DNA from: Thiothrix sp.
Lineage (GTDB): Bacteria > Pseudomonadota > Gammaproteobacteria > Poriferisulfidales > GCA-002705445
NCBI GenBank assembly: GCA_038141665.1
Contig: JAYQIN010000002.1
Coordinates: 3,604-67,603, forward strand
Direction of reading: 5' to 3'
DNA: 64,000 bases
In this document: positions 2,283 to 54,681 of the stretch, piece by piece
Layout of the letters: each line of letters begins with the position of its first letter
How positions within the stretch are numbered: the first letter of the stretch is position 1
Notes under the pieces: model-generated
The model's input: the letters and a program-made list of their open reading frames with translations, nothing else
What the model was told of the DNA's origin: nothing
The model's database searches: none
Program-made: the position numbers and the translations under genes

Positions 2283-2358
2283 GCCGCCTTAGCTCATTTG
2301 GTAGAGCAGTTGTTTTGTAATCAGCAGGTAGTCAGTTCGATTCTGACAGGCGGCTCCA
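2283..2358 (+). tRNA. thrU: tRNA-Thr (anticodon UGU)
   Basis: 76-nt cloverleaf GCCGCCT..AGGCGGC-U-CCA. D-loop carries GG, T-loop is TTCGATT, anticodon loop is TTTGTAA. Resembles E. coli thrU. Confidence 0.65.
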
Positions 2359-2489
2359 TATACTACTATAGTAATATTAAGACAGTTGTTTTATTACCCA
2401 TAATAGGTTATCTTAATAAGCATAAGTTAATATAGGTAAATAACAATATTTGAGTATTTAAAGAAGCTTAGGAAAAACGTAATGATGCA

Positions 2490-2882
2490 ATGAATGGACA
2501 ACTAATACTTATACCAGGCCGCTCTGCAAAACAAGGAGTGGGGCTGAATAAGGGTAAGCTTAAGGAAGAGTATATTAGAGTCACAACTACGCTTGAAATT
2601 AGTTTCGAAGACGCAGCAGAGCTGGGTCTTGAAACAGCTGATATAGTCAAGATTAGTAATCATATTGGCGAAACTGAAGTCCAATTAAAAGTTCTAAGAG
2701 AAGGTAAAATTCCTGTGGGTTATGCATTCATTCCTTATGGTCCGCCATCAAGTTGCTTATTTGATGGAGAGACTTGTTCTACCGGTATGCCAGCTTCGAA
2801 GGGAATGACTATAGATATAGAGTTTGTTAAAAAAGGTGTAAAGAAGAAGACTGCTTTACCACCAAAAACTGCAGTTGGTTAA
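2490..2882 (+). CDS. fwdD: formylmethanofuran dehydrogenase subunit D-like (molybdopterin dinucleotide-binding domain protein)
   Basis: 130 aa, the size and beta-barrel-like composition of FwdD/FmdD. Sits first in the fwd/fhc-like cluster. Confidence 0.5.
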   Translation: MNGQLILIPGRSAKQGVGLNKGKLKEEYIRVTTTLEISFEDAAELGLETADIVKISNHIGETEVQLKVLREGKIPVGYAFIPYGPPSSCLFDGETCSTGMPASKGMTIDIEFVKKGVKKKTALPPKTAVG

Positions 2883-2909
2883 GGAGAAGATTTAGTTAAA
2901 GGAGATTTT

Positions 2910-4280
2910 ATGAGTGCGGCAACAAAAGATAATAAAATTGTAAATGAAAAAATTGTAGAGAATGCAACTTGTACTTTTTGTGGGTGTTGTTGTGATGATA
3001 TAACTTTGACAGTTGACATGGATAAAAAAGTTATCACAAAAGCTAAAGATGCTTGCATACTCGGAAAGTCTTGGTTTTTAAATCATGTTATAGAAGACAA
3101 ACCTATAGCAAGAATTGATGGAAAAGAGGTTCCTTTAGATGATGCAATTGATGAAGCTGCAAAAGTTTTAATGGATGCAAAGTTTCCAATACTATACGGA
3201 ATGAGTGACACAATATGCGAAGCTCAAAGACAATGCGCGCCAATTATGGATGATTGTGGAGGCACAATTGATACAACAACTTCAGTTTGTCATGGCCCAT
3301 CAGGCATGGCTTTTCAAGGAGTTGGTGAGCCAAGTATGACTTTGGGTGAAGTAAAAAATAGAGCTGATTTTGTAATGTATTGGGGCGGTAATCCAGCTGA
3401 AGCACACCCAAGACATTTTGCAAGATATGCTGTTACACCAGAAGGTATGTTTACTCCTAACGGGAAAGATGATCGTACAGTTGTGATCTGTGATGTAAGA
3501 CATACAAAAACTGCAGGTGTTGCTGATATATTTTTGCAAATAAAACCAGGTAAAGATTTTGAATTTTTGTGGATCTTAAGAGCTGCTTGTAAAGGGGTGG
3601 CTATTCCAGAAAATTGTAAAGAAATTTGTGGTATAGATAAAGAAGTCGCTGAAGACCTTTTTAATAAAATGAAGAATTGTAATTATGGAGTTATATTCTT
3701 TGGAATGGGTTTGACAATGACTAGAGGAAGGCATTTTAATTCTGGAGCATTAATGGCATTAGCAACAGATCTAAATGAATTCACACATTTCGTTGCAAAA
3801 CCAGCAAGAGGGCATGGAAATGTTACTGGTGCGGACAATGTTGTTTCTTGGCAAACTGGTTACCCATTTGGAGTTAACTTTAGTAGAGGCCATCCAAGAT
3901 TTAATCCTGGTGAATTTACAACTGTAGATACTTTGACAAGAAAAGAAGCAGATGCTGCTTTAATTATAGCAAGTGATCCAGTAGCAAATTTCCCAAAGCC
4001 TGCAATTGATCATATAACAAGTGATAAGTGCAAATTAATATCTATAGATACAAAAAACACACCGACAAGTGAAGCTGCACATGTTTCTATTCAAACTAGT
4101 ACTTATGGTATTAATACTGGTGGAACAGTTTATAGAATGGATGATGTTCCGATTAGTTTGAGACCTGCGTTTGATTCACCATTTCCTAGTGATCTAGAGG
4201 TGCTAACAAAACTTAGAAAAAAAGTTAATGAGTTGTCTAAAAAAGCTAATAGGCCATATGCAACTCGTAAATACATGTGA
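2910..4280 (+). CDS. fhcB: formylmethanofuran dehydrogenase subunit B homolog (FwdB/FhcB)
   Basis: 456 aa. N-terminal Cys cluster CTFCGCCCDD resembles the FwdB CxFCGxxCDD Fe-S motif, with the molybdopterin-oxidoreductase-like fold following. Confidence 0.7.
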   Translation: MSAATKDNKIVNEKIVENATCTFCGCCCDDITLTVDMDKKVITKAKDACILGKSWFLNHVIEDKPIARIDGKEVPLDDAIDEAAKVLMDAKFPILYGMSDTICEAQRQCAPIMDDCGGTIDTTTSVCHGPSGMAFQGVGEPSMTLGEVKNRADFVMYWGGNPAEAHPRHFARYAVTPEGMFTPNGKDDRTVVICDVRHTKTAGVADIFLQIKPGKDFEFLWILRAACKGVAIPENCKEICGIDKEVAEDLFNKMKNCNYGVIFFGMGLTMTRGRHFNSGALMALATDLNEFTHFVAKPARGHGNVTGADNVVSWQTGYPFGVNFSRGHPRFNPGEFTTVDTLTRKEADAALIIASDPVANFPKPAIDHITSDKCKLISIDTKNTPTSEAAHVSIQTSTYGINTGGTVYRMDDVPISLRPAFDSPFPSDLEVLTKLRKKVNELSKKANRPYATRKYM

Positions 4281-4326
4281 GTACGTTTAAATAAATATAA
4301 AAAATTAAAAAAGGTTTGAATTAATC

Positions 4327-5994
4327 ATGAGTAATGAAATTCGCATCATAAACGGTATTGTTTTTGATCCTACAAATGAAATCGAAGGAAAAGTTTGCGA
4401 CATTTGTATTAAAGACGGAAAAATTGTTTCTGAAGTTTCAAAAGCAGCAAAAATTATCGACGCAAAAGGAATGGCAGTGATGCCTGGCGGCGTTGACATT
4501 CATTGTCACATCACAGGACCTAAAGTAAATTTAGCTAGAAAATTAATGCCTGAAGATCATAGGTTAGACCCGCATTTTAAAACTCCTTATACACAATCTG
4601 GAACAGGAGGTATTGTTCCTTCAACTTTTGCTACTGGATATAGGTATGCAACATTAGGCTATACAACTGCGATGGAAGCTGCAGTACCGCCATTAACTGC
4701 TAGGCATGCTCTCGAAGAAATGTATGATACTCCGATTATTGACAATGGATTTTATGTTTTACTTGGAAATAATCTTTTTTTACAAAGTTTAATATACGAA
4801 GGTCGTTATGCAGAATTTAAGGAGGCTGTTGCCTGGTGGTTAAATGCTACAAAAGCATACACTGTTAAGTTAGTAAATCCAGGAGGAGACGAGCCATGGA
4901 AAGGGCACAAGAATCTTAACGTTAAAAGTATTGATGAAGATAGTAAAGCTACAGATGTAGCCCCACGAAAAGTTATTGAAGCATTTATTGATGCCGTTCA
5001 TGAGTTAGGATTACCTCATCCTCCGCATATACATTGCAATAATTTAGGACACAGTGGAAACTTTGATACAACTTTAGAAAGCATGAAAACTGCTGGCGAC
5101 AGAAGACTACATGTTGCGCACATTCAGTTTAATAGTTATGCAGGTGAACTAGGCAAACCACCAAAATCAGCTTCAAAAGAAATTACAGACTATGTTAATG
5201 ACCATCAAAATATTACTTGTGATGTTGGGCAAGTAATGTTTGGTAAAGCAATGTTTATGACAGCTGATGCTCCTTTAACCTATTTATTAAGAAGTTATAA
5301 AAAAGAAAAATGGGTAAACGCAGACACAGAGTGCGAAAGTGGTTGCGGTATTTTACCTTTTGATTATCAAGGTATGATTTACACTCATGCATTGCAATGG
5401 GCTATAGGCTTAGAAATATTTTTACTATCTAAAGACCCGTGGAGAATAGTTCTGTCAACTGATCATCCAAATGGCGGATCATTTGCAAATTATCCATTAG
5501 TAATAAAATTATTAATGGATTATGAATTTAGAAAAGTAGCAATGAAAAGTGTAAATCAAAAAGCAATGAACAGTACAATATTAGGTGAGCTAAAAAGAGA
5601 ATATACACTAAATGAAATATGCATTATTACAAGAGCTGGCCCAGCCAAATGTTTGGGTTTGAAAGATAAAGGTCATTTGGGTGTAGGCGCTGATGCTGAT
5701 ATTACTATATACGATATGCTAGAAGATAAAGAAGAAATGTTTAACGCGCCAAGATACGTTATGAAAGCAGGCCAATTGTTAATAGCAGATCATGAATTTG
5801 TTAGCGATTATACGGACAAAAAGGTTCTACGTGTAGCACCTGATTATGATAGAGAAATAGAAAAAGTTATAAAACCATTCTTTGATGATTTTTATTCTGT
5901 TTCTTATAGCAATTACGCAATTCAAGATGATTATTTACATGGCACAGGTAAGGTAATAGAAACAAAAAAGAAAAATAGTATTTATGAAAATTAA
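4327..5994 (+). CDS. fhcA: formylmethanofuran dehydrogenase subunit A homolog / Fhc subunit A (amidohydrolase fold)
   Basis: 555 aa. GVDIHCHITGPKVN metal-binding HxH motif of the FwdA/amidohydrolase superfamily. Length matches FhcA (~548 aa). Confidence 0.75.
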   Translation: MSNEIRIINGIVFDPTNEIEGKVCDICIKDGKIVSEVSKAAKIIDAKGMAVMPGGVDIHCHITGPKVNLARKLMPEDHRLDPHFKTPYTQSGTGGIVPSTFATGYRYATLGYTTAMEAAVPPLTARHALEEMYDTPIIDNGFYVLLGNNLFLQSLIYEGRYAEFKEAVAWWLNATKAYTVKLVNPGGDEPWKGHKNLNVKSIDEDSKATDVAPRKVIEAFIDAVHELGLPHPPHIHCNNLGHSGNFDTTLESMKTAGDRRLHVAHIQFNSYAGELGKPPKSASKEITDYVNDHQNITCDVGQVMFGKAMFMTADAPLTYLLRSYKKEKWVNADTECESGCGILPFDYQGMIYTHALQWAIGLEIFLLSKDPWRIVLSTDHPNGGSFANYPLVIKLLMDYEFRKVAMKSVNQKAMNSTILGELKREYTLNEICIITRAGPAKCLGLKDKGHLGVGADADITIYDMLEDKEEMFNAPRYVMKAGQLLIADHEFVSDYTDKKVLRVAPDYDREIEKVIKPFFDDFYSVSYSNYAIQDDYLHGTGKVIETKKKNSIYEN

Positions 5995-6871
5995 TAATAC
6001 AGAAATAGTTGATACATATGCAGAAGCTTTTTCAATGTGGTCTGCAAAAGTAATTATTACAGCAGAAAATGATTATTGGGCTGAAGGTGCTGCTAGAGCA
6101 ATGACAGGTATGGCAACTTCTGTGATAGGTTGTAAGTGTGAAGCAGGTATAGACATGAAGCTATCTCCAGACGAAACTCCAGATGGGAGACCTGGTTATA
6201 GCATTCTAGTTTTTACAATGGATAAACCTAGTTTAGGGAAAAGATTAATTGAAAGGATAGGACAATGTGTAATGACTTGTCCAACAACAGCATGTTTTAG
6301 TGGGTATGAAACTGAAGATACTGTAAACGTTGGCGGGGCTTTAAGGTATTTTGGAGATGGTCATCAGATAGGAAAAAAAATCCAGAACAAAAGATACTGG
6401 AGAATCCCAGTTTTTGATGGAGAATTTATAATTCATGAAAATTTTGGAGTTAAAGAATCTGTAGGAGGAGGAAACTTTTATATTCTTGGTGATAATGTTA
6501 AAGATTGTTTAGATGCTTGTTACGATGCTGTAAAAGTTATGAAAAGAGTTGAAAATGTTATTATGCCTTTTCCCAAAGGAGTAGTTAGAAGTGGAAGTAA
6601 AGTTGGTTCAAAATATAAAGATCTAGTTGCATCAACAAATCACATCTATTGCCCCACTTTAAAAGGTGTAGTTAAAAATTCAGCCGTACCCGATAATGTA
6701 CATACTTGTTATGAGATTGTAGTTGATGGTTCTGATGAAAAAGCAGTTGCAGAAGCAATGAAAGTAGGAATGCATGCTGCTGCTAAAGACGGAGTCACTC
6801 AGATAACTGCTGGAAATTTTGGTGGTAAACTTGGTAAATATAAATTTCACTTAAAGGATTTGCTAGATTAA
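5984..6871 (+). CDS. fhcD: formylmethanofuran:tetrahydromethanopterin formyltransferase homolog (Ftr/FhcD)
   Basis: 295 aa, Ftr-sized. Lies between the fwdA and fwdC homologs as in methylotroph fhc operons. Confidence 0.65.
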   Translation: MKINNTEIVDTYAEAFSMWSAKVIITAENDYWAEGAARAMTGMATSVIGCKCEAGIDMKLSPDETPDGRPGYSILVFTMDKPSLGKRLIERIGQCVMTCPTTACFSGYETEDTVNVGGALRYFGDGHQIGKKIQNKRYWRIPVFDGEFIIHENFGVKESVGGGNFYILGDNVKDCLDACYDAVKVMKRVENVIMPFPKGVVRSGSKVGSKYKDLVASTNHIYCPTLKGVVKNSAVPDNVHTCYEIVVDGSDEKAVAEAMKVGMHAAAKDGVTQITAGNFGGKLGKYKFHLKDLLD

Positions 6872-6880
6872 AAAAACATA

Positions 6881-7687
6881 ATGAAATTAAAATTACATAC
6901 AAAACCTGATGTTCCTTTAGAAGCTGAAAGCATTACACCTTCAGTAATTAATAAACTAAAGATTAAAGAAATTGAGAAAGTTAAAATTTTTCATGGCAAT
7001 AGAGAAGAAAATATAGCTGATTTTTTTTCTGTTTCTAAAAGTAAAACCGAGGCGCTTGAAGTTGAAGGCGACATGAATCGAATAAAATACTTAGGTGCAA
7101 ATATGCATGATGGAGAGATGTATATTGAGGGTAATGCTGGAGCACATTTAGGTTCGGCAATGTCAGGTGGGTTTATAAGAGTTAATGGTAATACTGGAGA
7201 TTGGGTTGCCCCTGAAATGTCTGGGGGAAGAATTCATATTTCCGGAAATTCTGGACATTGTGTTGCAAGTGCATATAGAGGAGCCTCTAAAGGTGTCTCA
7301 GGTGGTGAGATCGTTATTGAAGGTAATGTTAAAAATGAATTAGGCCACGCAATGGCAGGAGCTACAATGGTTGTAGGTGGAAATTGCGGAGATTTTGCCG
7401 GAGTAAATATGATATCAGGAACTATTTTAACTTTTGGAGAAATGGGTATTAGGACTGGAGCAGGTATGAAAAGAGGCTCTATAATATGTATAGATAATTT
7501 AGAAGTATTGCCAACCTTTTCTTACGATTGTTTATATAATCCAACATATTTAAAATTATTCTTTAAATATATAAATGAAAATACAAAGATTGATATAGAT
7601 GACAAAATTATTAATGGCTCATTTCATAGATGGAGTGGAGATGCAATTGAAATGAATCGTGGAGAACTTTTAGTTTATTCTGCGTAG
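6881..7687 (+). CDS. fhcC: formylmethanofuran dehydrogenase subunit C homolog (FwdC/FhcC, GXGXXG-repeat beta-helix)
   Basis: 268 aa with repeated G-N-x-G / SGG motifs (GNAGAHLGSAMSGGFIRVNGNTGDWVAPEMSGGRIHISGNSGH...), typical of the FwdC/GltB C-terminal domain. Confidence 0.75.
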   Translation: MKLKLHTKPDVPLEAESITPSVINKLKIKEIEKVKIFHGNREENIADFFSVSKSKTEALEVEGDMNRIKYLGANMHDGEMYIEGNAGAHLGSAMSGGFIRVNGNTGDWVAPEMSGGRIHISGNSGHCVASAYRGASKGVSGGEIVIEGNVKNELGHAMAGATMVVGGNCGDFAGVNMISGTILTFGEMGIRTGAGMKRGSIICIDNLEVLPTFSYDCLYNPTYLKLFFKYINENTKIDIDDKIINGSFHRWSGDAIEMNRGELLVYSA

Positions 7688-7723
7688 GTATATAATTTAG
7701 TAAAGTAATTAGGAGCATTTATT

Positions 7724-8029
7724 ATGACAACGGTAGTAACAGATAATTGTAGAGGATGTAGATTTACTGATTGCGTTTCAGTTTGTCCCGTTGAGGCATT
7801 TCATGTTGATGATGAGATGTTATACATCAATCCTGATGTATGCATAGATTGTAGCGCCTGTGTTCCCGAATGTCCTGTAGAAGCAATTTATGAAGAAGAT
7901 GATCTGCCTGATGGACAAGAGCATTGGGTTGATATTAATGAAGAAAGATCACAAGAAACCCCAAACATTACTGAAACTCTAGAGCCGCTTGAAGGCGCAG
8001 AAGATAAAAGAGAAGCATTAGGTTTATAA
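7724..8029 (+). CDS. fdxA: ferredoxin (7Fe/2x[4Fe-4S]-type, FdxA-like)
   Basis: TDNCRGCRFTDCVSVCPVEAF...CIDCSACVPECPVEAIY gives two Cys clusters with the CP motif. 101 aa. Confidence 0.7.
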   Translation: MTTVVTDNCRGCRFTDCVSVCPVEAFHVDDEMLYINPDVCIDCSACVPECPVEAIYEEDDLPDGQEHWVDINEERSQETPNITETLEPLEGAEDKREALGL

Positions 8030-8041
8030 TTTTTATAAAGA

Positions 8042-9472
8042 GTGAAAAAAATGAGCAAATTAGGAAGTTCGGATAACCCTTTGAAAGTTGCAATCGTTGG
8101 AGCCGGTCCAAGTGGATTTTATGCTGCAGATGCTTTAATTAATTCAGATTTAAAAGTCGAAGTAAATCTAATTGAAAAGCTTTGTGCTCCATATGGACTT
8201 GTAAGAACAGGCGTTGCGCCAGACCATGCATTAATCAAAAAAAGTATTGAAAAATTTGCTGTAATGGCAGAGCCAGAAGAATTTAATTACTTTGGAAATG
8301 TAAGTGTTGGAAAAGACATAACTGTAGATGCTCTAAAAGAAACTCACCATGCTGTAATCATTACAATGGGAGCTGAAACTGATAGGAAGCTTGGTATACC
8401 TGGTGAAGATTTAAAAGGTAGTCATACTGCTACAGAGTTTGTTGCATGGTATAATGGACACCCTGAATATAGAGAAAGAGAGTTTGATCTTTCCCATGAA
8501 AATGCAGTCATCATTGGACAAGGCAATGTTGCTGCTGACGTCGCAAGAATACTTTCAAAAACAGTAGATGAGCTAAAACATACAGATATATCTCAACATG
8601 CACTAGACGTTTTAGAAACTAGTAAAGTTAAAAATATCTATATTGTTGGCAGAAGAGGTCCTGCTCAAGGAGCAATGACATCAAAAGAGCTTAAAGAGTT
8701 TGGAGAGTTACAAGAGTGTGATACTTTTGTTGATCCAAGTGAAGCAATTCTGAATAATTCTAGTGAGGAAGAGCTCGCTGATCGAAACGGAAGAGCGGCA
8801 AAAAAAATATATGAATTATTTGCTGGTTATGCCGAGCCAAAAAGTCCTCATAAAGCAAGAAGCTTCCCATGGACCAAGCCTTATATAAAACCAAGAAAAT
8901 GCCATATACAATTTTTAAGAAGTCCAGTGGAATTGAAAGGCAAAAATAAATTAGAGACAGTTGTATTTGAAAAAAATGCACTTTCAGGAGAACCATTTAA
9001 ACAATCTGCCAGAGGAACTGGTGAATTAGAAGAGCTTAAAGCTGGAATTTTATTTAGAAGTATTGGATACAGAGGGGTACCTTTGGATGGAGTGCCATTT
9101 CATGATGCTTGGGGCGTTATTCCAAATGTGAAAGGAAAAGTTACTGAAGATAATGAAAATAAAATAATTGTCCCACAACTATATACAGCTGGATGGATTA
9201 AAAGAGGTCCAAGTGGAATTATTGGCACAAACAAAGCTTGCGCTAATGAGACCATCGAAGAGCTTATGTTAGATTTAGAAAAGTTAGATGATAAAAAAGA
9301 AAAGCTTGGAAATAAAAAAATTCGTGAAATCTTAGATGCAAAAAAAGTAAGATATATTAATTTTATTGAATGGGAAGTTATAGATAAGCATGAAGTTGAA
9401 AATGGCAAGCCAAAAGGAAAACCAAGAGAAAAATTTACATACACCGAAGAGATGTTAGGACTACTAACCTAA
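8042..9472 (+). CDS. fprA: NADPH:ferredoxin (adrenodoxin-type) reductase, FprA family
   Basis: VAIVGAGPSGFYAA FAD Rossmann motif, VIIGQGNVAADVARIL NADP Rossmann motif, YTAGWIKRGPSGIIGTNK. Colinear with M. tuberculosis FprA (~456 aa). Confidence 0.7.
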   Translation: MKKMSKLGSSDNPLKVAIVGAGPSGFYAADALINSDLKVEVNLIEKLCAPYGLVRTGVAPDHALIKKSIEKFAVMAEPEEFNYFGNVSVGKDITVDALKETHHAVIITMGAETDRKLGIPGEDLKGSHTATEFVAWYNGHPEYREREFDLSHENAVIIGQGNVAADVARILSKTVDELKHTDISQHALDVLETSKVKNIYIVGRRGPAQGAMTSKELKEFGELQECDTFVDPSEAILNNSSEEELADRNGRAAKKIYELFAGYAEPKSPHKARSFPWTKPYIKPRKCHIQFLRSPVELKGKNKLETVVFEKNALSGEPFKQSARGTGELEELKAGILFRSIGYRGVPLDGVPFHDAWGVIPNVKGKVTEDNENKIIVPQLYTAGWIKRGPSGIIGTNKACANETIEELMLDLEKLDDKKEKLGNKKIREILDAKKVRYINFIEWEVIDKHEVENGKPKGKPREKFTYTEEMLGLLT

Positions 9473-9562: not shown

Positions 9563-10033
9563 ATGATAAATAATAAAGATATGGATGAAGCACGTAATGC
9601 CTGGGGCGATGGCATAATTTCGATTTCAAAAACCTATGAAGAAAAAGGTATCGAAGAAGCCATAATAGTAGCAAGGAAAATTTTACAAGATTTGTATGCT
9701 TTCGAACTCGGACCTATATTATTTAAGCCAACTTTGAGTGGAAGTGATCAGACATTTCGTTCAAATTTAGAAGGCGCTCTGTCTTATTTTGTTGGTGATA
9801 ATCCAAAATACCCTATGGATAACGGCTTTGTAATAAATTCATGGTGCAAATTTGAGTCCAAAACCTCAGATGTTTTTATAGATGAAAATATTGCAATCTG
9901 GATGGGGTGGGTAACTTTTACCAATAAAAATGGTGATACTATGAAAGTTGATAAAAGCTGGGCATATAAAAAAATGCCAAATGGTAACTTAAATATCGTT
10001 TTACACCACTCGTCGTTACCGCATAAAAATTAA
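9563..10033 (+). CDS. hypothetical cytoplasmic protein (possibly NTF2/SnoaL-like fold)
   Basis: 156-aa ORF with no signal peptide and Trp-rich C-terminal half. No family recognised with confidence. Confidence 0.3.
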   Translation: MINNKDMDEARNAWGDGIISISKTYEEKGIEEAIIVARKILQDLYAFELGPILFKPTLSGSDQTFRSNLEGALSYFVGDNPKYPMDNGFVINSWCKFESKTSDVFIDENIAIWMGWVTFTNKNGDTMKVDKSWAYKKMPNGNLNIVLHHSSLPHKN

Positions 10034-10125: not shown

Positions 10126-11016
10126 ATGTTGAAGGTTCTTTTAATATTTTTTATTACTATTACAGCATACGCGGGAAGTGATGGTGTAGATGATGTTGTA
10201 GATGATGTTGTAAAAAAAAATATTGGAAAAATTAATAATTTCGCTGCAGATTCTATATCAGACTTCTTGAGTGGCCCTGGTACGACAGAAGTTAAAGTTA
10301 AAGGTTTAGAAAATAAAAAACCTGAATACTCTATAATGTTACTTAGACCATTCTCATTATCAGAAGATCACTCATTTTTCTCTCAAATGCAGTTAAATCA
10401 TTATTACATAAGAAACGATGGAAGAGTTGCTGTTAATATTGGTTTAGGGTATCGAAAAATTTTCAATGACAACTATATTTTAGGTGTAAATTTATTTTTA
10501 GATGCCGATGACGAAGATAACACAAGGTCAAGCATAGGTTTAGAATTAAAAACAAATGCTTTTGAGGCTTACGCAAATTATTATTCAGCCATCTCTAGCT
10601 CAACAAAGGTTGGTGTAAACACTGAAAGAGTTTTAGATGGATATGATTTTCATGCTCTTGGTCAAGTACCATTTTTACCTTGGGCAAAAATTCATTACAC
10701 ATATTTTGATTGGGATGCAGATAAACTATCAACAGACACTGATGGAAGTGATTTATCATTAGAAATGCTTATTACGCAAAATATTTTAGTTGAAGTTGGT
10801 TATTCAGATAATAATTTTAGATCAGCAGATGGTTTCGGTTCGGTTAGATTCATATACCCTGGCAGAGAAGGAATCTCAGCTTTCGATGAATTTATAAGTG
10901 AAGAAGCCTTTGCTTCCGGCACAGTAAATCATTTACTTCTTACAAAAGTTGAAAGAGATAATAAAATGAAAATTGAAACAGAAAGCGAAGGTGTTGTTAT
11001 TGGGAGACTTGACTAA
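10126..11016 (+). CDS. putative outer-membrane beta-barrel protein (signal peptide; intimin/inverse-autotransporter-like beta domain?)
   Basis: N-terminal signal peptide MLKVLLIFFITITAYAG, alternating amphipathic strands, aromatic-rich C-terminus. DDVVDDVV tandem repeat at the N-terminus. Confidence 0.4.
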   Translation: MLKVLLIFFITITAYAGSDGVDDVVDDVVKKNIGKINNFAADSISDFLSGPGTTEVKVKGLENKKPEYSIMLLRPFSLSEDHSFFSQMQLNHYYIRNDGRVAVNIGLGYRKIFNDNYILGVNLFLDADDEDNTRSSIGLELKTNAFEAYANYYSAISSSTKVGVNTERVLDGYDFHALGQVPFLPWAKIHYTYFDWDADKLSTDTDGSDLSLEMLITQNILVEVGYSDNNFRSADGFGSVRFIYPGREGISAFDEFISEEAFASGTVNHLLLTKVERDNKMKIETESEGVVIGRLD

Positions 11017-11729
11017 TGAAAAATTTATTATTTGCTATTTTAATTTTCTTTTTTAACGTAATTATCCATGCAGATACTACTGAGTATGCAGATGCAGAAC
11101 AATATAGTGTAACAATTGAGTCTGTAAAATTATGTCAAAATGCAACAATTAACAGCGAAGAATCATTTTCTGTGTCAGGGTGTGTCACATTAGGAAATAC
11201 CTCTTTAACCGTTGATATAACTTCTGCAGAAGTAAATGGAACTCTAGGTAAGTACGCTGATACCAATGCTTTGCAAGCTGGCACAACTTATAGATATTTT
11301 GTTCCTACCATCAATAGAAATTTTTCTGTAAAGGGTAGCGCGCTTTTAGATTCTCAAATTAGTGGAACTTTTACATGCAACACTGATGAAAATGCAACTC
11401 AAGGCAGCAATGCAAAAAATGTTACCCAAATAGCAGGAAATGTTAATGGGGTTGCGTCCACTACTGCAACTTTTTCAACCTCAACCACAAATTCTGGAAT
11501 TGTTTGTTTGAATACTGAATGCAGCAATACGCAAACGGGTTTAAATTTTGATAACAATATGCCAAATGATACAACTTTATACGGTAATTCAATGAATGTC
11601 CCGTCAGATACTACACCGACAATGGAGATGTTTATACACTTCCTCTCCATTCACTATGGGAAATATTCCTCCAGTTATAAATATGAGTTTTGGAACCAAG
11701 TCCTCTATTCAGATGGAATCCACAAGTAG
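11016..11729 (+). CDS. secreted Thr/Ser/Asn-rich protein with conserved Cys pairs, translationally coupled to the upstream OMP (TAATG overlap)
   Basis: Signal peptide MKNLLFAILIFFFNVIIHA, 237 aa, 6 Cys. The C-terminal end may be affected by a frameshift (an alternative frame continues). Confidence 0.35.
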   Translation: MKNLLFAILIFFFNVIIHADTTEYADAEQYSVTIESVKLCQNATINSEESFSVSGCVTLGNTSLTVDITSAEVNGTLGKYADTNALQAGTTYRYFVPTINRNFSVKGSALLDSQISGTFTCNTDENATQGSNAKNVTQIAGNVNGVASTTATFSTSTTNSGIVCLNTECSNTQTGLNFDNNMPNDTTLYGNSMNVPSDTTPTMEMFIHFLSIHYGKYSSSYKYEFWNQVLYSDGIHK

Positions 11730-12323: not shown

Positions 12324-12408
12324 GGAGGGGTACTCAAGCGGTCAACGAGGGCAGACTGTAAATCTGCTGGCTATGCCTTCGGAGGTTCGAATCCTCCCCC
12401 CTCCACCA
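12324..12408 (+). tRNA. tyrU: tRNA-Tyr (GUA), long variable arm
   Basis: GGAGGGG...ACTGTAAATC...GGTTCGAATCCTCCCCCCTCCACCA, near-identical architecture to E. coli tRNA-Tyr. Confidence 0.9.
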
Positions 12409-12517
12409 TTAATTACTATATTTTACTATGTCTGTTAGAATATAAAAATTAAGAGGTATTTGGGTTTATTTTGCTGATTTAATAGGGTTTTGCGTGATTT
12501 TTTAGATAATTTTTATT

Positions 12518-12591
<74 letters not shown>

Positions 12592-12643
12592 ATAAAATTA
12601 GCAAAAATTTAGAGCAATCCTGTTAAAAACAGTATACAATCAC

Positions 12644-12719
<76 letters not shown>

Positions 12720-41476: not shown

Positions 41477-41857
41477 GTGAGACACAAGTATTCTGGAAGA
41501 AAATTAAATAGAACATCATCGCACAGGGCTGCAATGTTTAAAAATATGATGGCTTCATTAATTGAACATGAAGAAATTAAAACAACAGTTCCTAAGGCAA
41601 AAGAATTAAGAGGTTTTGTTGAACGTTTAATTACAATTTCTAAAGTTGATACTATTGCAAAAAGAAGAATAGTTTTTTCTCGAATAAGGTCAAAAGAAGC
41701 TGTTGCAAAACTTTTTAATGAACTTGGGCCAAGATTTAAAGAGAGACCTGGAGGCTACACAAGAGTTTTAAAATGTGGTTTTAGAGCAGGCGATAAAGCC
41801 CCTATGGCTATAATTCAATTAGTAGACAAGAAAGAAGAAGCTATAGAAGAATCATAG
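41477..41857 (+). CDS. rplQ: 50S ribosomal protein L17
   Basis: 126 aa. Confidence 0.9.
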
Positions 41858-44661
41858 AATTTTCTTTAAGTACCTGCCTGTAAATGATTTTTTGTTCTTG
41901 GCGACTAATTCAGGCGATCCTTCAGCAATAATATTTCCACCTTTCATGCCTCCTTCTGGACCCATGTCTATAATCCAATCAGCTGTCTTTATAACATCTA
42001 AATTGTGTTCAATTACAATTATTGTGTTTCCTTTATCTCTTAGTTTATAAATAATTTTCAGCAGCTGGTCAACATCATGTATATGAAGACCAGTAGTTGG
42101 CTCATCAAATATATATACAGTTTTTCCAGTATCTTTTTTTGAAAGCTCTTTAGCTAATTTTACTCTTTGTGCTTCACCACCAGAGAGAGTAGTAGCATTT
42201 TGCCCAACCTTAATATATGACAGACCAACATCTACTAGTGTTTTTAATTTTCTCTTGATAGTAGGAACACTATCAAAAAATTGGTACGCATCTTCTACCG
42301 TCATGTCTAGCACCTCTGAAATATTTTTATTTTTATATAAAATTTCTAAAGTGGAATTATTATACCTTTTACCTTTGCAAATATCACATTGTACATATAT
42401 ATCTGGTAAAAAATGCATTTCAACTTTTATGACTCCATCCCCATGACAAGATTCGCATCTTCCTCCTTTAACATTAAAACTAAATCTCCCAGGATTGTAA
42501 CCTCTTGATCTAGATTCTTGTGTTGCTGCGAATAAATCTCTTATTAAGGTGAAAAGGCCTGTATATGTTGCAGGGTTAGACCTGGGCGTTCTTCCTATTG
42601 GGCTTTGATTTATTTCTATTATTTTATCAAAGTTCTCCCAGCCCTCTATATTTTTTACATCACCATGATTGTTACTATTTTTATTAATTTTATTACTTAG
42701 ATATTTAAAAAGTGTTTCATTTATTAGAGTTGATTTACCTGAGCCTGATACACCTGTTATACAGGTTAATAATCCAATTGGTATTTTAACATCTAAATTT
42801 TTTAAATTATTCGAAGATGCATTTAAAATTTTTAAATTTCTTGAGTTTGGCTTTAGTCTTTCAGTCGGAATTGATATATTTTTTTACCTGACAAATATAA
42901 TCCAGTAATGGAATTACTATTTTTTTCTACTTCTTTAGGAGAACCTTCCGCTACTACTTCTCCGCCATAGGCGCCAGCTCGTGGACCTATATCTATTACA
43001 TAATCAGCAGCTCTAATAGTACACTCATCATGCTCAACAACAATCACAGTGTTACCTAAATCTCTTAATTTATATAAGGTTTCAATTAATTTATCGTTAT
43101 CCCGTTGATGAAGCCCTATAGAAGGCTCATCTAATATATAAGTTACGCCAACTAGACCTGCTCCAATTTGACTAGCAAGCCTAATTCTCTGATTTTCACC
43201 TCCTGATAAAGTCTCAGCACTTCTTTCAAGACTTAAATAATTTAGCCCCACGTTATTTAAAAAGCTTAATCTTGAGAATATTTCTGTAATTAGTTTGTCA
43301 GCAATTTTTTTTCTTTTGCCGGACAAAGAGATATTTTTAAAAAAAAGCAAACATTCATCGATGGGCATTGAGGAAATATCAGTAATATTTTTATCGTTTA
43401 TAAAAACATTTCTAGCATCTTCACTCAATCTAGTACCGTTGCATTCCCCACAAATTTGTTTAGAAAGATATTTATTTAATTCTTCTCTTACGAAATTTGA
43501 CTCTGTGTTATTATATCTTCTTTCAAAATTACTTATTACGCCTTCAAAGCTTTGCATTTTAGTAACTTTTTTTCCGTTATTATTGTAATAAATAAATTTT
43601 ATTTCCTCATTTCCTGTGCCGTATAAAATAGTTTTTTGTACTTTTTTACTTAAAGAGCAAAATGGAACTTCTATATTAAATTTAAAATGTTCTGAAAGCG
43701 ATTTGATAATTTGAAAATAAAATTCGTTCCTTTTATCCCAGCCTTTTATAGATCCAGAGGCCAAACTAAGATCTTCGTTTACAATTTTTTTTTCATCAAA
43801 AAACTGATTTACACCAAGTCCATCGCATGCTTTACATGCTCCCACTGGACTATTAAATGAAAAAAGTCTTGGCTCTAATTCTTGTATACTATAACCGCAT
43901 TTTGGACATGCAAATTTCGATGAATAGCTTTCATCTTTTTTTTTGTCATGCGAGTGAATAATAACTGTATCGTTTTTAAAATTTAACGCTGTCTCTATTG
44001 ATTCTGTAAGTCTTATTTTTGAATTTTTGTTAATTTTTAATCGATCTAACACAAGCTCTATCGTGTTATTTTTTTTTGGATCTATTTTTGGAAGTTCTGA
44101 AATATTATATATTGTTTTATTTATTCTAAGCCTTACGTAACCTCTTATTTTAATATCTTCTATAATATTTTTATGCTCACCTTTTCTGTTATTAATTAAG
44201 GGTGTAAGTATTATTAATGACTCATTTTCTTCATATTTTTCATATAGGTCTTCAACAATTTCTGAGGCAGATTTTCCTTCTAAACTATTTCCATGAGTTG
44301 GACACTTTGGCGCTCCTGCCCTTGCAAAAAGTAATCTTAAATAATCGTGAATTTCTGTAATTGTCCCAACAGTTGATCTAGGATTATGCGAAGTTGTTTT
44401 TTGCTCAATTGATATAGCTGGAGACAGACCTTCTATGTGATCTACTTCTGGTCTTTCCATTCTTGTTAGAAATTGTCGTGCATATGCAGACAAGGATTCA
44501 ACATATCTTCTTTGACCCTCCGCGAAAATAGTATCAAAAGCTAGTGAGGACTTACCGGATCCTGATAGGCCAGTAATAACGATTAACTTATCTCTTGGAA
44601 TAGTTACATCTATATTCTTTAAATTATGGCTTCGTGCGCCCTTAATTACTATATTATGCAT
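41852..44661 (-). CDS. uvrA: excinuclease ABC subunit UvrA, apparent 1-bp deletion in the T7/A7 homopolymer at 42879-42885
   Basis: The 602-aa N-terminal ORF ends ...[16 protein letters not shown]. The next frame continues ...[51 protein letters not shown]...[25 protein letters not shown] into the 188-aa C-terminal ORF. An 8-A run would restore [15 protein letters not shown], colinear with E. coli UvrA. Confidence 0.85.
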
Positions 44662-51299: not shown

Positions 51300-51968
51300 T
51301 CAATGCTTTAAACTCTTGCACAATATTTTCAACATTATTTGCTGATATTTTCGAGCTTCTTGATAATTTATTTTCGCAAAGAGCACCTCTGAAACCCATA
51401 TAGTTTGGATAAGTTTTAGAATTTGATCTATATGTGATTTATTAATTGATCCAGCAACACCAGTTAAAAGATTGAGTTTTTTTGAATTTAAAATAAAATT
51501 ATTTAAATCAGAATAAGTTAAATGATTAAAGAGATTCCCAGATTTTTTATTAGATGTATCTAACATTACTCCACTATAGCCAGATTTTTTTAGTACCAAC
51601 AAATCGTTAGTGTTGGGTAAAAATAAATCAGCAAAGAAAACAGCAATTAATTTTTTAATAGATTTTATTTCAGACAATGTATTAATATAATCATTCTCGT
51701 ATACGCCTATTTTAATAAAATCGATGTTTGTTTTGCTTAGCTCGTCGACAATTTTTTCTATCAAAACTTTATTATTAGGCAGATCCCCAACTGTAGAGCT
51801 TGTGAGCTTTTTTTTATTAATAAAATTTATGATATTTTTTATGTCACTAGTTTTAAGTTTTCCTAGCGCTCCTTTTTCTGGATCCTTGAGATCAATAATA
51901 TCAATTTCTGAATTAATTATTATCTTTGCTTCCGACATATTTTGTATGCTAGCTAGTATTTTTGACAT
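51300..51968 (-). CDS. mfnB: (5-formylfuran-3-yl)methyl phosphate synthase-like (MfnB/DUF556), methanofuran biosynthesis
   Basis: IDIIDLKDPEKGALGKL, FIKIGVY, SGVMLDTSNKKSGNLF parallel the MfnB IDVKNP..GSLGA / KVGLY / AMLDTA..G..LF pattern. Confidence 0.55.
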   Translation of the reverse strand: MSKILASIQNMSEAKIIINSEIDIIDLKDPEKGALGKLKTSDIKNIINFINKKKLTSSTVGDLPNNKVLIEKIVDELSKTNIDFIKIGVYENDYINTLSEIKSIKKLIAVFFADLFLPNTNDLLVLKKSGYSGVMLDTSNKKSGNLFNHLTYSDLNNFILNSKKLNLLTGVAGSINKSHIDQILKLIQTIWVSEVLFAKINYQEARKYQQIMLKILCKSLKH

Positions 51969-52536
51969 TTTTTATATTTTCCCTATATTTATTTATATAA
52001 TCTATTAACCAAATCCATGCTTCTAATTCATTATCTCCAGCAGTTTTATTTATTGCAATTTGCAAGTATTTAATTTCATTCTGAATTTTCTTATCTTCAA
52101 TTATTCCTAATCTTGAGGCTAGTATGCAAAGTTCTAAAACTGCAGATTTTGCTCTATTCATTCCATAATACATTTTATGAGTTTCTTCATTTACAGGCTT
52201 GCATATAATAGTTGGTCTTAAATTATCATCTTCAATATGTTCTACAGTAAATTCTGTATGAGAAATTGCTTCCTTAATACTAGAACAATCAATATGCTTA
52301 GTTTTTAAGAAGTTAATTTTAATATTTTTTTTTACTATGCATGAAGCAAATATTCTTACATCATCTATATAGTTTATCACACCAGATCCATTTCTTAATA
52401 TATTTTCTAATGAAATTGATGGTTTAAAAGGTCTTATTTTCAGTATGTTATTTTCTATATATATGCCTAATGGAGATACTTTTATTGTATCATCAATATT
52501 TTTTGTAGTAACAATAGTTTCTCTAACATAGGTCAT
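51949..52536 (-). CDS. conserved hypothetical protein, probably associated with the H4MPT/methanofuran cofactor cluster (DUF447-like?)
   Basis: 195 aa, operonic (20-nt overlap) with the mfnB-like and DHPS-like genes. Family assignment is from memory only. Confidence 0.3.
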   Translation of the reverse strand: MTYVRETIVTTKNIDDTIKVSPLGIYIENNILKIRPFKPSISLENILRNGSGVINYIDDVRIFASCIVKKNIKINFLKTKHIDCSSIKEAISHTEFTVEHIEDDNLRPTIICKPVNEETHKMYYGMNRAKSAVLELCILASRLGIIEDKKIQNEIKYLQIAINKTAGDNELEAWIWLIDYINKYRENIKNVKNTS

Positions 52537-52542
52537 ATTTTT

Positions 52543-53956
52543 TTAATCCACATTTTTATTTTTAATTTTTCTCATAGTATGACCAGCAGTCTTAAATTTC
52601 ATTATATCATCTTCTGATATTTTAACCGAGCAACCCCACTTTAATATTTCATCCTGATCATACCTTTTGCCTAATTGAAAAGCTATTTCAGCTCTTGCCA
52701 ATTCCATACCAATGTAATATGCATGTCCATCATCATTTTTAATATCGAGATATTGATAAAACTCAGCCGCATCATTTTCAGTATAGAAATCTTTATTATT
52801 AAAAACATGGATACCATCATGATTAACATAAATTCTATAGTTTTTGTCTTTAACATTACTCCACATTTCCTTTAGTTCTTCTGTCGAATAAGGAAAAGGT
52901 TTTCTTTCATGAAGATTAAGTAATTTATTAGAAATATCCTTAGGAGGCATGCTATATGCCTTTGTTGTATGCATTATCCTTCTAGCAAAATTACCTTCTA
53001 TAATTGCCTTATTACAGTGCTCACTTACTTGTGTACATAAAGCATAATTTATCTCTAGTTCTGATGCTATTCCGAAAAGCAAAGCATTCATACCAGCTGT
53101 GTCAGCATGCGTAAGTTCTGTTAAGTTTCCAATTCCCATCATTATTTCAACATCAGAAAACTCCTTTCTGAAATTATGATATCTAACTATTGAATCTGGT
53201 AAAACCAAAATTAATTGGTTCTAGAATTGAATCAGCTATAAAGTTTTTTTTATTTTTTAATAGTTTTTCGATAAGTTTATAAAATTTTCTCTCTTCATTA
53301 GGAAAATTTGGAATAATAACTGGAATTGCTTCAACTTCATCCATTATCCAAATTGAATTTCTCTGAAGACTTAATAAAAAATCAGCGCCAGCTTTTGCCC
53401 CAGTAAGTAAATTTTTTTCGTCAAGTGAATCTATGCTTACCATGAAACCTTTTCTTTTTAGCTCCTGAATTGTTTCAACCAAGTGCGGAAATTTTGTACT
53501 TGGTAAGCATCCAATATCAATAACATCTGCACCGTCATCTTTATACATATTTGCTTGTGTAATAATTTGATCTATTGACATATTTGGAGCTTCTGTAATT
53601 TCTCCAATAATTTTTGTATCATATTTGCTTAGATCTAAATCTTTTCCTTGTAAACCTAAAAATCTTGGTATATCTTTTAATTCTTCGGGTCCTCGAATAC
53701 ATTTTTTCTTAAAATGTTGTTCTAAGTCTTTTATCTCTCCTCTGCACCTACCAGGAATAATGATTTTTGTAGCCTTTGAAATGTGTTCTATTTTGATTTT
53801 TTTTATAATAATATTAACTGTTGCCAATGCAGCTACGTTAACGCCTATATCTATGATCTCATAGGTGAATTGATTTTTAGAGCTAACATCAGACAGAACC
53901 TTTTCTAATGAAATTTTTGCTAATTTGCCAGTTAAAAATACTAAATGTTCTTTCAT
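52543..53956 (-). CDS. dihydropteroate synthase-like pterin-binding protein (probable H4MPT biosynthesis), read as two overlapping ORFs (53183-53956 and 52543-53208) in different frames
   Basis: The N-terminal ORF has a DHPS-like segment ...DVIDIGCLPS.... The combined length (~470 aa) fits the MJ0107/MptH-like family. A 26-nt out-of-frame overlap suggests a frameshift or genuine overlapping genes. Confidence 0.4.
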
Positions 53957-54040: not shown

Positions 54041-54681
54041 ATGATAGGAGTTCTAGGTGGTAGTTTTGATCCAATACATTTTGGACACATTAACCCTCTA
54101 ATTGAGGTTGCAAAGCAATTCAATTTCTCTGAAATTAAGCTTATTCCAACATATTGTTCACCAGCAGGCAAAAAATTTCATGCCAATTTTGAGCATAGAA
54201 TGAATATGGCATCAATAATATGCTCTTCATCTACAAATAATTTTTCAGCAGATGATATTGAGATTAAAAGAAAAGGAATATCTTACACATATGATACAAT
54301 AAGAATTCTTAAGGATCAAAATAGTAAAGATGATTTTTGTCTTATAATGGGTTTAGATGTATTTCTTAAAATTGAAACTTGGTTTAAGTATGAAAATATT
54401 CTAAATGAAGTAAATATTTTAGTTATAAATAGACCTGGACGCAATATAGACGAGATCAAAAATATGGGTAGCTTTGTAAATCAAAAGATTTCGAAAAACA
54501 AAAAAGATTTTTTAGACAATAAAAATTGTATGATTTATTTTTATGATATTTTGCCCATTGATATATCATCAAGTGATATAAGAAATATAATTAAAAAGGC
54601 AATAATCCAACCAAGAAAATTCCAGGTTCAATTATGTCATATATTGAAAGAAATAAACTTTACAGAAAAGAATATGAGTAA
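54041..54681 (+). CDS. nadD: nicotinate-nucleotide adenylyltransferase, apparent 1-bp deletion in the GG run at 54598-54599 causes read-through fusion with rsfS in the ORF track
   Basis: GGSFDPIHFGHINP (T/HxGH). The shifted frame restores ...NNPTKKIPGSIMSYIERNKLYRKEYE*, matching the E. coli NadD C-terminus LPPAVLAYIQQHHLYR. Confidence 0.75.

Follow-up and report, generated by a model that had tools for sequence, protein, structure and literature searches.

Seven genes in a 64-kb window (the whole stretch of DNA that was analysed) probably encode an aerobic bacterial dehydrogenase for formyl-methanofuran (methylofuran) that includes a formyltransferase and would pass its electrons to NADP+ by way of its own ferredoxin and reductase, as judged from sequence comparisons. 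The system is best read as a hybrid, with the chemistry of archaeal Fwd and the architecture of Fhc. All seven genes lie tightly packed on the + strand at 2490-9472, in the order fwdD, fwdB, fwdA, ftr, fwdC, fdx, fprA, and HMM and PDB searches assigned their families, in agreement with an earlier note on this DNA that had described a five-gene Fwd/Fhc-like cluster with a ferredoxin and FprA. The features, with reading frames taken from the ORF list, are as follows:

2343..2404, + strand: candidate operon promoter, two overlapping sigma-70-like matches (10/12 and 9/12), weak
2490..2882, + strand: fwdD, molybdopterin-dinucleotide-binding 'fourth domain' subunit, predicted to cap the FwdB pterin site
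2910..4280, + strand: fwdB, predicted Mo/W-bis-pterin catalytic subunit with N-terminal [4Fe-4S], proposed to carry out the formate/CO2 redox step
4327..5994, + strand: fwdA, binuclear-metal amidohydrolase, putative formyl-methanofuran <-> formate + methanofuran
5984..6871, + strand: ftr (fhcD-like), formylmethanofuran:H4MPT formyltransferase, 11 bp overlap with fwdA
6881..7687, + strand: fwdC, beta-helix scaffold with Fhc-like C-terminal helix-loop-helix, presumed Ftr docking platform
7724..8029, + strand: fdx, 7Fe ([3Fe-4S][4Fe-4S]) FdxA-type soluble ferredoxin, proposed FwdB electron acceptor
8042..9472, + strand: fprA, FAD-containing NADPH:ferredoxin oxidoreductase of the FprA/adrenodoxin-reductase family, likely start ATG 8051
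51300..53956, - strand: MfnB (4-HFC-P synthase, methanofuran biosynthesis), DUF447, PterinBD-DUF4346 and DUF6513 genes, predicted to serve cofactor supply or associated with the H4MPT pathway

Judging from their packing, the seven genes are best read as one operon. Spacing within the module ranges from -11 to 46 bp, and no terminator-like sites were found between its genes. The gaps amount to 36 bp between fwdC and fdx and 12-21 bp between fdx and fprA, fdx is preceded by an AGGAG ribosome-binding site, and neither promoter-like nor terminator-like sites were found between fwdC, fdx and fprA, so that fdx-fprA appear joined to the cluster, as had been claimed. In sister contigs, fprA is called from ATG 8051 (473 aa), not from GTG 8042. 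The promoter-like matches upstream fall in the 131 bp that separate tRNA-Thr(UGU) from fwdD; across the region such sites were no more frequent than in shuffles, and 2343..2404 is thus given as a candidate. The GC content of the window is 31.2%, matching the approximately 30% reported before, and the GC3 of the module (0.17-0.26) matches the genome background, indicating a resident module with no recent import. The host genome is that of a 1.1-Mb surface-ocean gammaproteobacterium.

The catalytic subunit sides clearly with the archaeal enzyme. FwdB matched TIGR03129 with 492 bits in HMM searches and archaeal FwdB of Methanothermobacter wolfeii (5t5i_B) with 377 bits (1e-111, 44% identical), compared with 45 bits (4e-11) for M. 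extorquens FhcB (6s6y_B). In the alignment, C21/C24/C28/C49 correspond to M. wolfeii C9/C12/C16/C35, the four Cys ligands of the [4Fe-4S] cluster, while C127/H128/R300, located in the motifs SVCHGPS and PARGHGNVTG, correspond to C118/H119/R288, the Mo/W-ligating Cys, the His and the catalytic Arg that mark the Fwd catalytic core (Hemmann et al. 2019, PMC6926001). None of the seven varies in any of the 80 relatives, a comparison set of species-level gammaproteobacterial loci with 31-65% GC. FwdB thus retains its [4Fe-4S] cysteines and its Mo/W-ligating Cys, the residues that the earlier note had named for checking, together with the His and Arg partners, and a role of FwdB as an Fhc scaffold was rejected on these residues and the bit scores.

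In an Fhc-type B subunit, the pterin ligands and the catalytic Cys/His/Arg are missing, and in 25/25 neighbouring Fhc-type B paralogues all three catalytic residues are replaced. The N-terminal cluster CTFCGCCCDD (residues 21-30), which the earlier note had treated as distinguishing, is present, but gammaproteobacterial Fhc-type B subunits retain these Fe-S cysteines without a catalytic site, so that the cluster alone does not discriminate Fwd from Fhc. At the sequence level, the discriminating features are FwdB Cys127/His128/Arg300 and the presence of FwdD.

The identity of the D-like ORF as FwdD, proposed earlier, holds in two kinds of search. HMM searches returned PF01568 (3e-10) and NF042908 (1.8e-16), and the PDB FwdD chains 2ki8, 8rja_D, 9sfi_S and 5t5i_D matched at 1.7e-14 (2ki8) to 4e-8. 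FwdD, which Fhc complexes lack, is thus encoded as a separate subunit directly upstream of fwdB. It represents the fourth domain of the DMSO reductase fold, which is critical for capping the pterin (Hemmann et al., PMC6926001); a 2016 review gives fwdD as absent from Proteobacteria. Among the relatives, 74 of 76 loci have an FwdD homologue ahead of the Fwd-type B gene, and every tblastn match to FwdD precedes a Fwd-type B gene.

The remaining subunits combine features of both systems. FwdA (TIGR03121, 685 bits in the HMM search) is closer to 5t5i_A than to FhcA 6s6y_A (467 versus 337 bits), and alignment with 5t5i_A places H59, H61, K181, H236, H265 and D379 at the conserved positions of the binuclear metal site (four His, Asp, carboxy-Lys). 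Ftr (PF01913 and PF02741, each about 6e-60; TIGR03119, 415 bits), encoded between A and C as in Fhc, scores 306 bits against FhcD 6s6y_D and 286 bits against archaeal Ftr 1ftr. For FwdC (TIGR03122, 244 bits), the AF2 model (pLDDT 94.8) contains helices at 222-234 and 241-244. In Foldseek comparisons it fits FhcC 6s6y_C (TM 0.89, rmsd 2.5) better than FwdC structures (TM 0.82-0.85, rmsd 3.5-4.1). The model suggests that Ftr docks on FwdC through this C-terminal helix-loop-helix.

The two downstream genes also carry the identities first assigned to them, a 7Fe ferredoxin and an FprA-type reductase. Fdx aligns with A. vinelandii 7Fe FdI 2fd2 over residues 4-94 (5e-29) and with M. smegmatis FdxA 2v2k (7e-15), compared with only 1e-5 for FwdG 5t5i_G, and is hence FdI-like, not FwdG-like. 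Its cysteines (C9, C12, C17, C21 and C40, C43, C46, C50) form the pattern CxxCxxxxCxxxCP ... CxxCxxCxxxCP, the spacing of Azotobacter FdI, which is found here together with the C-terminal extension of the 7Fe FdxA type; the NF045490 score of 117 bits is slightly under the cut-off of 135. FprA aligns with M. tuberculosis FprA 1lqt over residues 13-472 (2e-102) and with adrenodoxin reductase 1cjc (5.5e-92), including the family stretches VGAGPSG (FAD-binding GxGxxG) and VGRRGP (NADP-binding GRRGP).

Across the relatives, fdx and fprA directly follow fwdC in 60 of 61 loci, spanning 31-65% GC and 53-94% protein identity; locus L066 is without fdx-fprA. The larger genomes carry the module within a classical H4MPT island of fae-mch-mtdB type. 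In other loci it lies between coaX and tuf, and the fdx-fprA linkage holds there too. Chance does not account for an adjacency of this extent in such different genomic surroundings. The seven-gene set is widespread in Gammaproteobacteria and not peculiar to this genome, which qualifies the unusual bacterial wiring put forward earlier.

These results bear on whether the module could be an Fhc-like hydrolase with vestigial cofactor sites, followed by unrelated housekeeping genes. The B-A-Ftr-C order, the Fhc-like FwdC C-terminus and the Fe-S cysteines kept by catalytically incomplete Fhc-type B subunits would fit such a case, yet it is very improbable given the invariant ligands, the retained FwdD, the loss of catalytic residues in Fhc paralogues of the same genomes and the non-random adjacency of fdx-fprA. 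Conserved residues, FwdD and synteny instead support the earlier proposal of a redox-coupled, ferredoxin/NADPH-linked dehydrogenase that would not be purely hydrolytic.

A classical Fhc-type BADC cluster, its B subunit without catalytic residues, directly follows fprA in 24 of 57 loci and could supply free formate. FwdBD might then act mainly as a ferredoxin/NADP+-linked formate dehydrogenase, with FwdA, Ftr and FwdC as scaffold, in keeping with the formate/CO2 interconversion chemistry of FwdB (PMC7331816). We consider this quite unlikely. The module has retained an FwdA whose metal ligands are intact and an Ftr of its own, both strongly conserved, no Fhc cluster was found near the module in the streamlined clade, and the formate site of archaeal Fwd is reached by an internal tunnel (PMC6926001).

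In the dehydrogenase that we favour, Ftr would take the formyl group off formyl-H4MPT and load it onto the furan carrier, and the binuclear metal site of FwdA would hydrolyse the formylated carrier to formate. Through the interior of the complex, formate would then reach the FwdD-capped Mo- or W-pterin site of FwdB and be oxidised to CO2, while the two electrons would leave by the [4Fe-4S] cluster of FwdB and reach the 7Fe ferredoxin, which FprA (FAD) would oxidise to reduce NADP+. The net reaction would be formyl-H4MPT + NADP+ + H2O -> CO2 + NADPH + H+ + H4MPT. No FwdF/FwdG polyferredoxin genes were found in the operon or its flanks (ORF list, HMM searches), so that the soluble ferredoxin would need to dock directly on FwdB, a mode of docking that is not known for any Fwd.

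The E0' of NADP+ is -320 mV, and that of CO2+MFR/formyl-MFR is about -530 mV (PMC11656701). From these values the net reaction is strongly downhill, by about -40 kJ/mol, and would thus pull C1 oxidation and replace the usual pair of Fhc and formate dehydrogenase. Operation in the archaeal direction, with NADPH reducing ferredoxin and Fwd attaching CO2 to the furan carrier to assimilate C1 units, is suggested by the homology of the catalytic core to the CO2-fixing enzyme. It is extremely improbable, being uphill by about 200 mV (-320 to -530 mV, PMC11656701) with an FprA that has no bifurcating partner, and relatives carry the module in the setting of the oxidative fae-mch-mtdB pathway.

Synteny demonstrates linkage and gives no direction of electron flow, and FprA-type enzymes are reversible in vitro. 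An active dehydrogenase could therefore use the 7Fe ferredoxin as acceptor with NADP+ not as its main sink: reduced Fdx might donate its electrons to the respiratory chain or to other low-potential consumers, and FprA might only balance the Fdx pool or run from NADPH to Fdx, keeping the enzyme reduced and active in air. Such a protective or reactivating supply of reductant is conceivable in an oxygen-exposed habitat. We nevertheless regard it as unlikely, as thermodynamics favour Fdx -> NADP+ and a reductase next to the ferredoxin in 60/61 loci is most simply the second half of one electron path. In sister strains, alternative oxidase and photolyase genes a few kb upstream of the module point to a habitat with oxygen and sunlight. 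The oxygen sensitivity of archaeal Fwd enzymes counts against the aerobic reading.

The module was compared with the systems closest to it. With the tungsten/molybdenum FwdABCDFG of M. wolfeii (5T5I) it shares homologous A, B, C and D subunits including the separate FwdD, the FwdB [4Fe-4S] cysteines and Cys118/His119/Arg288, and the FwdA metal ligands. In contrast, the bacterial operon lacks FwdF/FwdG and FwdE genes and encodes Ftr internally, its FwdC has the Fhc-like C-terminus, its partners are a soluble 7Fe ferredoxin and an NADPH reductase, and its presumed direction in an aerobic host is oxidative. Methylorubrum extorquens FhcABCD (6S6Y) shares the H4MPT-linked C1 oxidation context, the slightly closer Ftr, and FhcC, the best fit of the FwdC model, with the helix-loop-helix that binds FhcD. 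It also shares the B-A-D(Ftr)-C order: the M. extorquens operon, cited earlier as "fhcCDAB", is fhcBADC (Hemmann et al. 2019, PMC6926001), which makes B-A-Ftr-C canonical and leaves the extra fwdD as the deviation. In M. extorquens FhcB the Fe-S domain and Cys118/His119/Arg288 are absent, there is no FwdD, and the complex releases formate; the module retains all three features, and its expected product is CO2 plus electrons.

In M. tuberculosis FprA/FdxA and mitochondrial adrenodoxin reductase, electrons flow from NADPH to P450s and similar acceptors. Module FprA aligns end to end with 1LQT and 1CJC, and mycobacterial FdxA (M. smegmatis 2V2K) is a related 7Fe partner, but the pair is fixed here beside a low-potential dehydrogenase and the expected flow is reversed. 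A precedent for downhill coupling to a mid-potential acceptor is the F420-reducing Fmd of Candidatus Ethanoperedens thermophilum (8RJA; PMC11493965), whose B, A, C and D chains rank high among the PDB matches of the module proteins. Both would share an oxidative direction, a dedicated reductase and thermodynamic pull; in that anaerobic archaeon the acceptor is F420 via an electronically connected reductase, whereas in the aerobic bacterium a soluble ferredoxin and an FAD reductase would hand the electrons to NADP+. An operon of the same order, fwdDBA-ftr-fwdC, occurs in Hakuba actinobacterial single-cell genomes (Merino et al. 2020, PMC7325909), with an Fe-S domain and Cys118 in FwdB and no fwdEFG. 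Its context is anaerobic Wood-Ljungdahl metabolism without H4MPT biosynthesis genes, its proposed function is linked to CO2 reduction or CO, and no FdxA-FprA pair is reported (PMC7325909).

The open-access literature searched yielded no description of an Fwd coupled to ferredoxin-FprA/NADP+. Tentatively, the module may represent an undescribed class, an oxygen-tolerant NADP+-linked formyl-methanofuran dehydrogenase-formyltransferase supercomplex and a surviving intermediate from archaeal CO2-fixing Fwd to bacterial Fhc hydrolase, in which the dehydrogenase was kept and Ftr already recruited. An abundant surface-ocean gammaproteobacterium with a 1.1-Mb genome might then convert formyl-H4MPT to CO2 by this system alone, without free formate or a separate formate dehydrogenase.

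No genes for Moco/Wco biosynthesis or Mo/W uptake were seen in the 64-kb window or the flanks of relatives, a point against the favoured reading. MfnB and H4MPT-associated genes share the window with the module, a point counted toward the favoured reading; their domain matches at 51300..53956 are PF04476 (4e-43), PF04289/PF20766, PF14251 and PF20123.

The region between tRNA-Thr(UGU) and tRNA-Tyr carries a module of seven plus-strand open reading frames, separated by -11 to 46 bp. The earlier note had described a cluster resembling both the archaeal formyl-methanofuran dehydrogenase (Fwd) and the formyltransferase/hydrolase (Fhc) of M. extorquens, followed by a ferredoxin and an FprA-type reductase, and this observation was confirmed in every particular, down to the exact coordinates of all seven genes. 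The features of the module region and of a carrier biosynthesis cluster elsewhere in the window are as follows.

2283-2358, tRNA-Thr(UGU), 5' bound of the module region
2490-2882, plus strand, fwdD: PF01568; NF042908 at 1.8e-16; FwdD chains in the PDB down to 1.7e-14
2910-4280, plus strand, fwdB: TIGR03129, 492 bits
4327-5994, plus strand, fwdA: TIGR03121, 685 bits
5984-6871, plus strand, ftr: TIGR03119, 415 bits
6881-7687, plus strand, fwdC: TIGR03122, 244 bits
7724-8029, plus strand, fdx: homologue of the Azotobacter 7Fe FdI (5e-29) with the same cysteine spacing
8042-9472, plus strand, fprA: M. tuberculosis FprA at 2e-102 and adrenodoxin reductase at 5.5e-92, aligned end to end including GRRGP
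12324-12408, tRNA-Tyr, 3' bound of the module region
51300-53956, minus strand, furan and pterin carrier biosynthesis cluster: MfnB/4-HFC-P synthase, DUF447, PterinBD-DUF4346 and DUF6513

The fwdC-fdx gap measures 36 bp and includes an AGGAG ribosome-binding site, while the fdx-fprA gap measures 12 bp, or 21 bp when counted from the ATG used in sister contigs; neither gap in the window contains a terminator-like hairpin or a promoter-like match. An Rfam scan of the whole window returned five tRNAs only, and no riboswitch, of the Moco class or otherwise, precedes fwdD. Automatic annotation labels these proteins 'formylmethanofuran dehydrogenase subunit B/C/D'.

To place the module between the two enzyme types, we compared it with the structurally characterized references. 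In M. extorquens, FhcB lacks the N-terminal [4Fe-4S] domain, Cys118 (M. wolfeii FwdB numbering) is replaced by Ser, His119 and Arg288 are lost, the pterin pocket is filled by loops, FwdD is absent from the complex, and a helix-loop-helix at the FhcC C-terminus is the docking site of Ftr (FhcD) (Hemmann et al. 2019, PMC6926001). M. wolfeii FwdB matches the FwdB of the window with 377 bits, FhcB with only 45 bits. It is 44% identical to archaeal FwdB, with indels of only 1-3 residues, and in the alignment to the M. wolfeii protein C21, C24, C28 and C49 match the ligands of the [4Fe-4S] cluster, while C127, H128 and R300 are the equivalents of Cys118, His119 and Arg288. The six metal ligands of FwdA are likewise kept. 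By the dehydrogenase criteria, as far as sequence can tell, the module is a Fwd.

In its architecture, the module resembles an Fhc. Its order B-A-Ftr-C equals the fhcBADC order of Hemmann et al. (PMC6926001); the earlier note had set the module beside an operon written 'fhcCDAB', which has the same adjacency. Its Ftr scores slightly higher with FhcD (306 bits) than with archaeal Ftr (286 bits). An AlphaFold model of FwdC (pLDDT 94.8) contains helices 222-234 and 241-244 at the site of the FhcC helix-loop-helix and superposes best on FhcC (TM 0.89, rmsd 2.5 Å), whereas archaeal FwdC fits less well (TM 0.82-0.85, rmsd 3.5-4.1 Å). From this combination of Fwd-type dehydrogenase and Fhc-like architecture, we infer the make-up of the intermediate postulated by Hemmann et al., in which the formyltransferase has been recruited and the dehydrogenase not lost. 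The module very likely encodes a cofactor-competent Fwd-type dehydrogenase, not an Fhc. The proposal that the complex is redox-coupled rather than purely hydrolytic was supported by every computational test suggested alongside it.

When one genome per GTDB species was scanned, at least 584 loci encoding a relative emerged, and the best 80 of these (FwdB identity 65-94%, locus GC 31-65%) were examined. Among these best 80, the seven cofactor and catalytic residues of FwdB are invariant (80/80), FwdD lies directly upstream of the Fwd-type B gene in 74 of 76, and Fdx and FprA lie directly 3' of FwdC in 60 of the 61 loci with enough downstream sequence. The sole exception, the related locus L066, carries a zeta-toxin-type insertion that separates fwdB from fwdA, lacks fdx-fprA and looks like a disturbed locus; the insertion (L066 11414-12279) comprises a zeta-toxin/AAA_33 ORF and a small upstream ORF. 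The fdx-fprA adjacency is found in two quite different genomic settings. In genomes of 1.4-2.4 Mb, the module lies between a second cluster and an H4MPT island with fae, mch, mtdB-type Mpt_N, ATP-grasp, RimK and CitG-type cofactor genes. In the streamlined marine clade, its neighbours are coaX/tRNA-Thr on one side and the tuf tRNA array on the other.

An Fhc-type B-A-D-C cluster directly follows fprA in 24 of 57 loci among the best 80. We examined 25 Fhc-type B genes, located about 6.5-7 kb downstream of the Fwd-type B gene (loci L008, L011-L015, L017, L022-L024, L027, L029, L033, L037, L047, L049, L051, L054, L056-L059, L062, L064 and L072). The B subunit of this second cluster is only about 25% identical. 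All 25 have lost Cys118, His119 and Arg288, and all 25 keep the four Fe-S cysteines, unlike M. extorquens FhcB, which is devoid of the whole Fe-S domain (PMC6926001). The N-terminal Cys cluster was therefore rejected as a discriminator between Fwd and Fhc, as the Fhc-type paralogues keep it. Two paralogous systems thus coexist, and it is precisely in the catalytic residues that they diverge, which speaks for functional and not vestigial sites in the Fwd type. Where both systems occur, one may speculate that Fhc supplies formate for assimilation and Fwd burns the surplus.

As a whole, the operon-like unit holds all subunits and ligands for formyl transfer, hydrolysis and formate oxidation, together with a 7Fe ferredoxin and an NADPH:ferredoxin reductase. 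In the proposed mechanism, Ftr would transfer the formyl group from formyl-H4MPT to the furan carrier, FwdA would hydrolyze formyl-furan to formate, and FwdBD would oxidize formate to CO2, with electrons passing from the FwdB [4Fe-4S] cluster through Fdx and the FAD of FprA to NADP+. The E0' of NADP+ is -320 mV. That of CO2/formyl-MFR is about -530 mV (PMC11656701), so that oxidation would release roughly 40 kJ/mol; reversal is implausible unless bifurcation is involved. The nearest precedent in function is found in Ca. Ethanoperedens, whose F420-reducing Fmd has a dedicated reductase and a similar thermodynamic pull (PMC11493965). We regard the full path from formyl-H4MPT to CO2, with electrons delivered to NADP+, as reasonably probable.

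MfnB and three H4MPT-associated genes are present in the window, 42 kb from the fwd operon, indicating that the H4MPT/methanofuran genes are scattered in this small genome, unlike in the related loci L084 and L085, where they form one island. Sister strains carry alternative oxidase and photolyase genes a few kb upstream. These carrier, oxidase and photolyase genes agree with an oxidative, aerobic role.

The slot directly 3' of fprA varies by strain. It holds a metal-independent (iota-type) carbonic-anhydrase-like ORF in the window (9563-10033) and in L004 (16629-17096), with an NF047901 score of 177 bits, below the cut-off of 350. A 404-aa SulP-family transporter lacking the STAS domain is found in L001 (7674-8864), L002 (15745-16938), L086 (16599-17813), L087 and L088, and the slot is empty in L005 and L081. 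Both alternatives are inorganic-carbon-type genes adjoining the predicted CO2-releasing enzyme. Further downstream (window 10126-11729), a 296-aa ORF hits intimin/invasin N-terminal models (8e-13) and so looks like the beta-barrel portion of inverse autotransporters; the 237-aa ORF behind it matches no family. Both occur in L001, L002 and L004, and not in L005, L081 or L086.

The window has a GC content of 31% and derives from a 1,105,664-bp contig of a marine gammaproteobacterium (NCBI). The nearest genomes were assembled from single cells and metagenomes and carry the labels 'uncultured Thiothrix sp.', 'Thiotrichaceae bacterium' or 'Gammaproteobacteria bacterium', and the taxon stays 'Gammaproteobacteria' (NCBI labels Thiotrichaceae or uncultured Thiothrix). 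TMED127/Methylaequorales was rejected as host, being an alphaproteobacterial group with genomes of about 1.5 Mb and a described tungsten formate dehydrogenase (PMC12542740). The 90% sequence cluster contains 688 sequences, Tara samples among them, and the lineage is streamlined, marine and very abundant. A conserved tRNA-Thr/tRNA-Tyr-Gly-Thr/tuf array (2283-2358, 12324-12719), which comes after birA-coaX, is interrupted by the fwd operon together with the variable genes that follow the operon. Recent horizontal transfer of the module was rejected, as GC3 (0.17-0.26) equals the background and the insertion point is shared with relatives, namely those at 78-94% FwdB identity; the higher total GC of the module matches that of other conserved genes, e.g. 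tuf and rpoBC.

Hemmann et al. (PMC6926001) describe Fhc as the only known bacterial methylofuran enzyme. A survey listed 149 bacterial FwdB-type hits (PMC10100899), and anaerobic Actinobacteria are known to have a fwdDBA-ftr-fwdC operon (PMC7325909). fwdD is said to be absent from Proteobacteria (PMC5020050), and our search for fwdD in Gammaproteobacteria found nothing beyond that statement. Likewise, no paper linking Fwd with an FdxA/FprA pair was found in a literature search that did not cover Adam et al. 2019 (Nat Microbiol), perhaps on bacterial fwd clusters. The parts are known, and the conserved seven-gene combination in aerobic Gammaproteobacteria, with the implied NADP+ coupling, appears undescribed. 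A conserved, cofactor-competent Fwd in these bacteria would change the map of bacterial C1 oxidation, as formyl groups could be oxidized directly to CO2, giving NADPH without a detour through formate. The module would also allow the three-step evolutionary route from Fwd to Fhc that structures had suggested to be tested in a living system, and would offer possibly an air-stable, NADPH-coupled relative of the 'all-in-one' CO2-capturing enzyme, of interest for biocatalysis. Because the lineage that carries it is marine, streamlined and very abundant, the module is relevant to the way in which bacteria of the surface ocean oxidize methanol or formaldehyde-derived carbon.

Elsewhere in the window, UvrA is apparently broken (41852-44661, minus strand). 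An ORF at 42853-44661 matches the 943-position UvrA model from residue 4 to residue 600, and a separate ORF with an ABC-ATPase tail (41852-42418) lies about 430 bp away; a pseudogene, a frameshift and an assembly error are all conceivable explanations. A YhdP-family protein is spread over three consecutive ORFs (56468-56977, 57131-57754 and 57732-58892) in a stretch of 20-29% GC, the gene being either decaying or frameshifted in the assembly. Finally, a 331-aa ORF (54041-55036) combines a cytidylyltransferase-like (NadD-type) domain with the ribosome silencing factor RsfS; the two genes, usually neighbours, appear to be fused here.
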